Shown piece after piece: positions 22,772-24,278 of a stretch of 26,140 nucleotides of DNA. The first letter of the stretch is position 1. Each line of letters begins with the position of its first letter. The notes beneath the pieces were generated by a model, which saw only the letters and a program-made list of their open reading frames with translations, did not search any database and was not told where the DNA came from. Where the stretch lies: assembly GCA_023248665.1 (NCBI GenBank), contig JAHFEC010000001.1:1-26140 (forward strand), in the 5' to 3' direction. Origin of the DNA: Candidatus Micrarchaeota archaeon (GTDB lineage Archaea > Micrarchaeota > Micrarchaeia > Anstonellales > Anstonellaceae). The translations under genes and the position numbers were made by a program.

Positions 22772-23914
22772 ATGAATATGAAACTGGCATCTATCATTCT
22801 GCTCGTCCTCCTGATTCCGGGCGTATTCTCGCTCTGCCTCGAATCGCTGGGAGTATGCGTCGACAACATCGACAGCCCGCTCCTGAACGCGATGATCGTT
22901 TCGACGGTCGGCACCGGCTCGCCCAGCGCCATCGCTCCCGTCCAGCTACCCACGACTAGCTTGACCTTGCCGGGCGCCGTCAAGGTGGTCAGCCCATATG
23001 GTAATCAAACCAACCAATCTGCCTACTGCACCAATAACAACTGGAAGCCCGGCCTGGTCTGCATCAACAACTGCCCCTCAACCTATACCTGCACCTCGAA
23101 CTGCACATGCATCCCGAGCAAGCCACCCACCAACCAGACCAACCAATCCGCCTACTGCACCAATAACAACTGGAAGCCCGGCCTGGCCTGCATCAACAAC
23201 TGCCCGTCCACTAGCACCTGCACCTCCAATTGCACCTGCAGTCTTCAGAAACTACCGGCGAATCAAACCAAGGCCACCTACTGTTATCAGTCTGTCAGTA
23301 CCCAGCCTTGGCAACCTGGCATCGTCTGTGTGGACAACTGCCCCATCGGAACCCTCTGCACCTCCAATTGCACCTGTATCCCACTCAGGCTACCCATCAA
23401 CCAGACCAACGAGACTTACTCCTGCAACCGCACGGCCTATCCTTACTGCTCCAGCGGCAACTGCCCATCCGGCCAGAGTTGCGTGGCCAATGGCAATATC
23501 AGTTGTCGCTGTCAGAACGTTTCGAACGTTTCCCTGCAAGTTTGCACCACGGGCGCCATCCAATGTTCCGGGCGCACGAAACAAGTGTGCAACAACGGCA
23601 AATGGCTTGACGATTCGTTCTGCGCTTTCGGCTGCTCGGGAGGCCAATGCCTTTCGCAGGTGGTCATCTCCAACCTCTATTCCATGCTGGTCGGCGTTCC
23701 GATGTCCGTGACGGTTTCAACCACGGGCTTCACCCCGGCGTATTATGTCGGCTCTCTGGGCGGCTCTCCGGCCATGACCAAGAGCGGAAAGACTGCGGTG
23801 TTTACCATCACCTGCCAGCAGGCTGGCGTAGCCACGCTGTCGGTGAGCGCCTATTCCAGCGATGGCAAACTGATCGGCACGGCCACCGGCGAGGCCAATT
23901 GCATGAAGAGGTAA
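22772..23914 (+). CDS. Secreted Cys-rich repeat glycoprotein (putative adhesin) with C-terminal Ig-like beta domain
   Basis: Signal peptide KLASIILLVLLIPGVFS, tandem Cys-rich modules, about 14 N-x-S/T sequons. Confidence 0.85.
   Translation: MNMKLASIILLVLLIPGVFSLCLESLGVCVDNIDSPLLNAMIVSTVGTGSPSAIAPVQLPTTSLTLPGAVKVVSPYGNQTNQSAYCTNNNWKPGLVCINNCPSTYTCTSNCTCIPSKPPTNQTNQSAYCTNNNWKPGLACINNCPSTSTCTSNCTCSLQKLPANQTKATYCYQSVSTQPWQPGIVCVDNCPIGTLCTSNCTCIPLRLPINQTNETYSCNRTAYPYCSSGNCPSGQSCVANGNISCRCQNVSNVSLQVCTTGAIQCSGRTKQVCNNGKWLDDSFCAFGCSGGQCLSQVVISNLYSMLVGVPMSVTVSTTGFTPAYYVGSLGGSPAMTKSGKTAVFTITCQQAGVATLSVSAYSSDGKLIGTATGEANCMKR
23003..23377 (+). repeat. Intragenic repeat, 129-bp (43-aa) period, three copies
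   Basis: NQTNQSAYCTNNNWKPGL(V/A)CINNCP...CTSNCTC at 23003 and 23132, diverged copy at 23261. Confidence 0.92.
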
Positions 23915-23918
23915 GCCA

Positions 23919-24278
23919 TTGGGAAATCTTCTCCGTGCGCTCGCTCTCCGTGCGTTTGTTCCGGGCCTGCTCCTGCTCTCCCTCGCACACGCCGTGGTTC
24001 CACCGACCCCTGTCAATCTCATCGGCGGCATCGCCACCCTCTGCGGCCTATTGAGCGACCTCCTGCCGCCCATCTGCCTCCTGCTCGTCTTCTCGGCTGG
24101 CGTCGTGTATGCGGCCGGACAGGTGGGCGGGGCGGAGACAAGAGCCAAGGCGCAGGGGTATGCCACCGCGATGGTCATCGGCGCCTTCATCGGCATCGTA
24201 TTGTCCATCATCCTGCCGGCCTTCCTGCGCGCCATCTACGGGTCGGACCTCACCTGTGCCATCGCCATCCTTGGCTGA
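23919..24278 (+). CDS. TrbC/VirB2-like pilin-family small membrane protein
   Basis: TTG start with GAGGT SD 6 nt upstream; signal-like N-terminus then two hydrophobic helices linked by YAAGQ..GAETRAKAQGYAT. Confidence 0.7.
   Translation: MGNLLRALALRAFVPGLLLLSLAHAVVPPTPVNLIGGIATLCGLLSDLLPPICLLLVFSAGVVYAAGQVGGAETRAKAQGYATAMVIGAFIGIVLSIILPAFLRAIYGSDLTCAIAILG

Follow-up and report, generated by a model that had tools for sequence, protein, structure and literature searches.

The archaeal DNA-import systems Ced (Sulfolobales and Aeropyrum) and Ted (Thermoproteales) consist of a pilin (CedA1/TedC), a channel (CedA/TedA), and an ATPase (CedB/TedB) (Beltran et al., 2023; PMC9905601). CedA1 and TedC are VirB2-like and pilus-forming, TedC carries a Sec signal that is cleaved, and the components of Ced and Ted may sit at distant loci (PMC9905601). 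Among bacteria, the Patescibacteria (candidate phyla radiation, CPR) possess chromosomal type IV secretion systems (T4SSs), mostly relaxase-free, with VirB2-like (PF18895/PF04956) arrays of 2–11 divergent pilins, some of them encoded far from virB4 (Microb Genom 2025; PMC12102498); no PrgB-like adhesin was found in these bacteria (PMC12102498). VirB4/TraG domains have also been discussed in nanohaloarchaea, where they occur in giant surface proteins (PMC10266531). Here, we describe a pair of genes, encoding a cysteine-rich (Cys-rich) protein and a 119-amino-acid (aa) pilin-like protein, in a 26,140-nucleotide (nt) stretch of archaeal DNA (hereafter the window), which is contig C13 of a 1.08-Mb, 141-contig genome (~73% complete) whose relatives are labeled Candidatus Micrarchaeota. 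An initial annotation, made from the window alone, had proposed that the pair is a host-attachment operon in which the Cys-rich protein is an adhesin at the tip of a T4SS-type pilus. We favor, with modest confidence, a different reading of these sequences: the 119-aa gene would encode a pilin of a Ced/Ted-like system whose paralogues are dispersed, and its probable co-transcription with the gene of a lineage-specific surface protein would reflect an evolutionarily young arrangement. A full-text search of the literature on Micrarchaeota or DPANN archaea with conjugation-type pilins or ATPases yielded no description of this pilin family in Micrarchaeota.

The assignment of the 119-aa gene as a paralogue of a VirB2/TrbC-like pilin family is supported, in agreement with the initial annotation, by matches at the level of the family and by predicted architecture. 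In a family alignment of 38 sequences, PF18895 (T4SS_pilin) is matched by 20 members and PF04956 (TrbC/VirB2) by 19 (E < 0.01; best E-values of 6e-8 and 1e-6, respectively), and a paralogue on contig C124 of the same genome (45% identical) scores 28 bits against PF18895, which is above the cut-off. Searched against all PDB sequences, the family profile best matches the VirB2 pilin of the R388 plasmid, TrwL (E 0.03). Comparison by hhalign of the pilin family with a TrwL alignment, built starting from a TrwL fragment, gave a probability of 69.5% (E 4e-5) over the first helix and the loop; neither CedA1 nor TedC was matched by sequence. The 119-aa protein has a Sec-type signal with predicted cleavage after A-H-A (residues 23–25), and its AlphaFold2 (AF2) model (pLDDT 83.6) places helices at residues 3–23 (the signal), 31–69, and 72–107, the last two forming a hairpin. 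The loop between them, GGAETRAKA, carries the conserved family version GAETRA(K/R)A; Cys113 is invariant in the family, and the window protein retains every family-invariant residue. Judged by the AF2 model and by hydropathy, the protein has the VirB2/TrbC architecture of a cleavable signal, two hydrophobic helices, a short charged loop, and a mature length of ~70–100 aa.

The pilin family is present in 350 of 401 sampled Micrarchaeota genomes, including 167 of the 188 high-quality ones, usually as 2–10 copies per genome and frequently in tandem arrays of up to four. Four clear paralogues are encoded in the window genome when the window copy is counted; the other three are a tandem pair on contig C48 (57–59% identical) and the C124 copy, and a fifth, weak and more distant match lies on contig C127. 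In two other families, the pilin arrays at four loci (L067, L081, L083, and L092) run directly into a five-gene cluster that encodes, in order, a polytopic membrane protein of 271–273 aa, an ATPase of 523 aa, a Zn-ribbon protein, and proteins of ~250 and ~880 aa. The window genome encodes such a cluster on contig C80 (Table 1), composed of a ~270-aa membrane protein, a 524-aa ATPase (51 and 61% identity for these first two genes), a Zn-ribbon protein, and proteins of ~256 and ~875 aa, as well as a second, paralogous membrane-protein/ATPase pair on contig C84.

The C80-type ATPase has AAA_10/DUF87/TraG P-loop domains and is 60–83% identical across the class. Its top NCBIfam families are CedD (72 bits; cut-off 600) and CedB (71 bits; cut-off 700), together with VirB4-type families, so that it belongs to the same superfamily and does not reach the CedB/TedB equivalog level. 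This ATPase is found in 341 of the 401 genomes of the phylum (E ≤ 1e-60), and its presence and absence agree with those of the pilin across 35 families. Both are absent from families f15 (0/7 for each), f19 (0/8), and f21 (0/4), and in family f16 each occurs in 3/21 genomes, which are the same three (G146, G148, and G316). Because related genomes are not independent, this co-occurrence constitutes support rather than proof. A VirB4/CedB-like ATPase with a membrane partner, encoded elsewhere in the genome and tracking the pilin throughout the phylum, supports the chromosomal, apparently non-conjugative T4SS-like system that had been proposed from the window.

The search for VirB4/VirB6-like genes that yielded the C80 and C84 clusters also yielded a canonical cluster on contig C43. 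This encodes a VirB4-like ATPase of 1115 aa (P-loop_TraG, 99.6 bits; CD1110-family, 182 bits) with a weak PrgI/VirB3-like N-terminus, which is preceded by an 891-aa membrane protein and a 67-aa protein with two transmembrane segments, and a beta-helix protein of >1218 aa adjoins. Strong orthologues of the C43 ATPase have a patchy distribution across the phylum, and most other matches are weak and confined to the ATPase domain, whereas pilins are near-universal; the C43 cluster was therefore rejected as the general partner of the pilin. From this distribution, the C43 cluster seems to encode an accessory or mobile T4SS that is separate from the conserved core.

Adhesins known from the pilus tip or surface of bacterial T4SSs include VirB5, TraC, and CagL, as well as PrgB in Gram-positive systems. 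The Cys-rich protein encoded upstream of the pilin has no match in Pfam or NCBIfam, VirB5-type tip and adhesin families included. Its N-terminus is a hydrophobic signal ending at Cys22. Residues 77–250 contain three near-identical six-Cys modules of 43–45 aa (C-x10/14-C-x3-C-x5-C-x3-C-x-C) and a fourth with different spacing; a fifth six-Cys module (mapped to 251–295 or 256–296) and a C-terminal, beta-rich domain of ~85 aa follow, and the protein carries 14 N-X-S/T sequons. An exhaustive HMMER search with the protein recovered 34 relatives (E ≤ 0.001), most of which share module 256–296 alone. This module recurs in 30+ proteins, with up to 12 repeats in large secreted proteins that have beta-helix or DUF2341 domains. 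The AF2 model, computed from a four-sequence alignment, is unusable (pLDDT 37.5), and the PKD/Ig-like surface proteins retrieved from the ESM Atlas (score 0.71) are a lead and not evidence.

When the end of the signal peptide was tested for the lipobox pattern [LVI][ASTVI][GAS]C, orthologues of the Cys-rich protein were found to carry LAGC or LTGC; in the window protein the corresponding residues are FSLC, with Cys22 at the same place. The lipobox of the orthologues points to anchoring in the membrane and not to a place at a filament tip, where the initial annotation had put the protein. Several other Cys-rich proteins with lipobox signals are encoded in the window genome. Module number differs even between very close relatives: a contig from another sample encodes a protein (P0009) that is 100% identical apart from an 84-aa insertion corresponding to two extra modules, and in the sister species the number of modules is roughly halved. 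Over the repeated modules (window 23026-23167), a Logan contig shows about double depth and breaks. The Cys-rich protein is probably a lineage-specific, rapidly changing, glycosylated, and membrane-anchored surface protein, for which a role as an adhesin is plausible.

Both genes of the pair are confirmed at the positions first given. Genuine genes in this genome have a third-codon-position G+C content (GC3) of ~0.8, and spurious overlapping frames do not; both frames of the pair have high GC3 (Table 1), and the alternative frames that overlap them do not. The junction between the two genes is not an assembly chimera, since positions 23155-25049 are spanned by an independent Logan contig of the same groundwater sample. 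The tight coupling that had been noted at this junction, with the pilin start shortly after the Cys-rich stop codon and its Shine–Dalgarno (SD) sequence inside the 3′ end of the upstream gene, is borne out by the coordinates (Table 1), and the pair is probably co-transcribed.

Conservation of the pair is a different matter. The Cys-rich gene occurs in two of the 141 genomes searched in the order, namely the window genome and G229, a sister species in which the neighborhood (contigs L010/L065) is syntenic, with 82–94% protein identity for conserved flanking genes and lower identity for the antitoxin and two small unknown proteins. In the sister species, the Cys-rich gene ends in an identical AAGAGGTAAGC junction, 4 nt beyond which begins the orthologue of the 136-aa gene that lies downstream of the pilin in the window, and there is no pilin gene anywhere in this locus. 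Thus, the coupling junction either pre-exists or outlives the pilin. In the window genome, a TATA-like element, ATATTTTTAAA, gives the 136-aa gene a candidate promoter of its own, and the sister species couples that gene directly to the Cys-rich gene. The sole other holder of the Cys-rich/pilin pair is the contig that encodes the protein with the 84-aa insertion.

Beyond these genomes, none of the 68 neighbors (≥150 aa) at 40 pilin loci in other genomes has ≥3% Cys, vs. 34 of 372 non-neighbors; at 29 further pilin loci, two of 44 neighbors reach ≥3% Cys, and both are apparently spurious open reading frames (ORFs). Genes with ≥5% Cys make up 2.1% (15/713) of those of ≥150 aa in the window genome, and with four to five pilin copies and two neighbors for each, one chance adjacency is unsurprising. 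The linkage between the pilin family and secreted Cys-rich genes, on which the proposal of an adhesin–pilin operon had been made to depend, is not conserved, and the pairing appears to be a young, species-level arrangement rather than a conserved adhesin–pilin module.

Under the reading that we favor, the 119-aa product would be exported via Sec and its signal peptide removed, leaving a mature pilin in the form of a two-helix hairpin of ~94 residues. The hairpin would probably be passed to a chromosomal Ced/Ted-like apparatus comprising the ~270-aa membrane protein, the 524-aa CedB/VirB4-like ATPase, and three partners, encoded on C80, with the second membrane-protein/ATPase pair on C84. This apparatus may polymerize the hairpin into a conjugative-type pilus or conduit, a step suggested by gene order in other lineages and by phyletic co-occurrence. 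The Cys-rich protein would be disulfide-rich, N-glycosylated, and probably lipid-anchored at the cell surface, with a module number that varies between close relatives, and the pairing would at most co-express two variable surface components.

Several observations weigh against a dispersed pilin of a Ced/Ted-like system that stands beside a surface protein by recent arrangement. The 119-aa protein itself scores 15.7 bits against PF18895, below the cut-off of 26.6. A Foldseek search of its model against PDB gave 51 weak matches, none of them to a pilin and none reaching E ≤ 0.001, a null treated as uninformative because a bare helical hairpin is a simple fold and was modeled with its signal helix. 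The link from the pilin to the C80 cluster consists of adjacency in a few lineages and of co-occurrence among relatives that are not independent. In same-sample and same-study metatranscriptomes, the sampled words are absent and the contigs give no coverage of the pair. The F-S-L-C signal of the window Cys-rich protein is a non-canonical lipobox. In an unrelated lineage (L014/L015), the gene that begins 16 nt beyond a pilin paralogue encodes a 709-aa secreted protein with 46 Cys, which has the motif CP..C....C.CIPSKP in common with the window Cys-rich protein; this case may leave room for a recurrent, loose association of pilins with Cys-rich proteins. Lastly, the synteny from DRG to HtpX is lost in five other genomes of the same genus, so that insertion of the pilin cannot be polarized against its loss.

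The first two of these observations are also those on which a non-filament role could be founded. The 119-aa protein would then be a small bitopic or hairpin membrane protein with no more than the VirB2-like architecture in common with pilins, for instance an accessory of the Ced/Ted-like machine that forms a channel or binds lipid, or a membrane protein unrelated to that machine. Monoderm T4SSs of the archaeal-related class are generally without pili (PMC12102498), and the literature search gave no filament data for Micrarchaeota. Nevertheless, the family matches specifically T4SS_pilin, TrbC/VirB2, and TrwL; its cleavable signal and its arrangement as several copies in tandem are reminiscent of VirB2 arrays in Patescibacteria; and the archaeal CedA1 and TedC, which have the same architecture, do form pili (PMC9905601). 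We consider a non-filament role unlikely, while retaining it as the most credible of the alternatives.

A dedicated host-attachment module, in which a VirB2-like filament displays the Cys-rich protein as an adhesin at its tip or along its length, draws on the tight coupling of the two genes, in which the SD sequence lies within the Cys-rich gene, a single TATA-like box precedes the pair, and a T-run follows it, and on the signals predicted for both products, by which both would be exported. A varying number of Cys modules would suit a host-facing protein, and at L014/L015 a pilin paralogue likewise stands beside the gene for a large, Cys-rich secreted protein with a similar short motif. Against this, the identical junction joins the Cys-rich gene to another gene in the pilin-less sister locus, the Cys-rich family is restricted to one genus, and ~70 other pilin loci are without a credible Cys-rich neighbor. 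The lipobox of the orthologues, the absence of any resemblance to adhesin families or VirB5-type tip proteins, and the frequency of Cys-rich genes, at which chance adjacency is plausible, point the same way, and a dedicated tip adhesin in a conserved operon with the pilin, as first proposed, is distinctly improbable.

Very doubtful, in our view, is an analogy with the host-retargeting role proposed for the variable pilin arrays of Patescibacteria, by which dispersed pilin paralogues might be exchangeable "specificity cassettes" whose variant pilin and fast-evolving Cys-rich protein (here and, independently, at L014) would retarget a conjugation-like pilus to a particular host. Least probable is that the pilin copy is a recent arrival by horizontal transfer or a mobile element, now a decaying or non-functional passenger: the copy has no orthologue in five same-genus genomes (best match 58%), is missing at the equivalent site of the sister species, and has a MazEF pair close by, but it has an intact frame with a host-like GC3 of 0.80, all family-invariant residues, and a good SD sequence and coupling, its borders are without repeats or element ends, and its DNA similarity to paralogues is confined to the ORF core.

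Table 1. Features of the Cys-rich/pilin locus (positions in the window) and of related loci (contig or locus given with the position).
Feature	Position	Strand	Description
Cys-rich gene	22772..23914	+	ORF; 380 aa, 34 Cys; GC3 0.76
Pilin-like gene	23919..24278	+	ORF; 119 aa, TTG start; GC3 0.80
Junction of the two genes	23912-23914 (TAA stop), 23919-23921 (TTG start)	+	Spacer of 4 nt, from the sequence
SD-like GAGGT	23908..23912	+	Within the final codons and stop of the Cys-rich gene, 6 nt 5′ of the pilin TTG
TATA-like box TTATTTAA	22714..22721	+	51 nt 5′ of the Cys-rich ATG, by sequence inspection; inferred candidate archaeal promoter for a two-gene transcript
Short hairpin and T5 run	24265..24291	+	Directly 3′ of the pilin stop; terminator-like, not above shuffled expectation; candidate end of a two-gene transcript
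TATA-like ATATTTTTAAA	24284..24294	+	~31-41 nt before the ATG of the next gene (24325)
~136-aa gene	24325..24735	+	Context; 46% identity to L010:6947-7381 (E 6e-33); no Pfam match
Secretion-type ATPase, 836 aa	18325..20835	+	Context only; weak T2SSE/TadA/FlaI/VirB11 similarity
MazF/PemK toxin and DUF7557 antitoxin	20923-21500		Between the 836-aa ATPase and DRG genes
aIF5B/IF-2 gene	1211-1936		Apparently encodes C-terminal domains alone
Canonical VirB4-like cluster	C43:4983-11224 (L025)
Five-gene CedB-like ATPase cluster	C80:6683-13394 (L026)
Second membrane-protein/ATPase pair	C84:1997-4680 (L029)
Tandem pilins between RNase HII and PAC2	C48:2065-4807 (L027)
Pilin with adjoining ~200-aa protein	C124:619-2881 (L028)		Class III signal-like N-terminus of the ~200-aa protein
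Distant pilin match	C127:6834-7082 (L030)		82-aa membrane protein
GT-C glycosyltransferase genes beside pilins	L069:8580-10046, L081:8351-9847		Similar genes in L087, L089, L093, L102

The gene order around the pair is 836-aa ATPase, MazEF (opposite strand), DRG GTPase, Cys-rich gene, pilin, 136-aa gene, and HtpX. The 836-aa ATPase scores 23.5 bits against PF00437 and, among NCBIfam models, 60 against the TadA family, 41 against FlaI, and 40 against VirB11, all below the cut-offs. Its gene ends 1.9 kb upstream of the pair, matching the distance of about 2 kb first reported, in a locus that is syntenic in the sister species. As an assembly motor for the pilus, this ATPase was rejected: proximity is all that connects it with the pair, a toxin–antitoxin pair and the DRG GTPase gene intervene, and no tie was found between them. 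No relaxase, VirB4, or integrase was detected among the window ORFs scanned, as had been observed in the initial annotation; the ORF at 16847-18037 (−) lay outside the scan.

Neighbors that recur at pilin loci are PMT_2-type glycosyltransferases, ~200-aa KGY proteins, the membrane-protein/ATPase cluster, and syntenic housekeeping genes. A GT-C glycosyltransferase of ~490–508 aa (PMT_2/PMT; dolichyl-phosphate-mannose protein mannosyltransferase family) directly adjoins pilins in several genera (Table 1), and its recurrence hints that the pilins or their partners are perhaps glycosylated. Often adjoining the pilin is a protein of ~200 aa in which K/R-G-Y/H precedes a hydrophobic stretch, resembling the signal of archaeal type IV prepilins (class III); besides C124, it is found at L069, L070, L080, L082, L087, L094, L105, and L106. 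At C124, L069, and L087, two or three further small proteins with similar N-termini follow the ~200-aa protein; none of these proteins gave a Pfam match.

Two other pilin-related loci of the window genome show further features. The C48 locus (RNase HII, tandem pilins, and PAC2) is conserved with the sister species, relative to which it has gained two genes, one for an AAA_14/DUF4143 ATPase and one for a 459-aa polytopic membrane protein whose start lies 12 nt beyond the second pilin. The 459-aa protein was considered as a VirB6-like component and rejected, having no family match, and the equivalent slot elsewhere is occupied by a PMT_2 glycosyltransferase. The distant pilin match on C127 (E 0.005; 27% identity) is an 82-aa membrane protein of two helices with no signal peptide, flanked by two membrane-protein genes. 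Three genomes of the same genus encode weak counterparts of this protein, which may represent a VirB2/CedA1-like component that is more distantly related.

For the attachment of DPANN archaea to their hosts and the uptake of host material, the phylum-wide VirB2-like pilins together with the CedB-like ATPase cluster are a good candidate apparatus. The window locus is not the machine itself; it holds a peripheral, stray pilin paralogue in a housekeeping neighborhood. The locus shows that the pilins occur in several copies dispersed among housekeeping genes, that copies are gained or lost between sister species, and that one copy lies behind a rapidly changing, probable surface glycoprotein. It is a data point on the turnover of pilin paralogues and does not supply the proposed appendage with an adhesin at its tip; the attractive model of an adhesin–pilin operon is cleared away as unsupported.

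Compared with T4SS tip adhesins, the Cys-rich protein has the conceptual likeness of an exported protein encoded beside a pilin. Unlike VirB5 or PrgB, it is unmatched to such families, and it is Cys-rich, beta-rich, modular, and probably lipid-anchored; its gene also lies apart from genes for a secretion machine, and its linkage to the pilin is not conserved. The T4SSs of Patescibacteria are closer in setting, in that both groups are ultra-small episymbionts with a chromosomal, mostly relaxase-free T4SS-like system whose pilins are matched by the same two Pfam models. However, theirs is a bacterial system with a canonical VirB4 nested in the MPF-FATA class, whereas the phylum-wide ATPase of Micrarchaeota is shorter and CedB-like, and the canonical VirB4-like gene (C43; 1115 aa) is patchy.

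The Micrarchaeota set differs from Ced and Ted in the score of its ATPase (~70 bits vs. equivalog cut-offs of 600–700), in its multi-copy pilins dispersed among housekeeping genes, and in its Zn-ribbon, ~250-aa, and ~880-aa partners, which have no demonstrable Ced/Ted counterpart. It also belongs to a host-dependent DPANN archaeon. Like Ced and Ted, the set is archaeal, chromosomal, relaxase-free, and T4SS-derived; it combines a hairpin VirB2-like pilin with a polytopic membrane partner and a VirB4/HerA-type ATPase, and the models against which this ATPase scores best are those of CedD and CedB.

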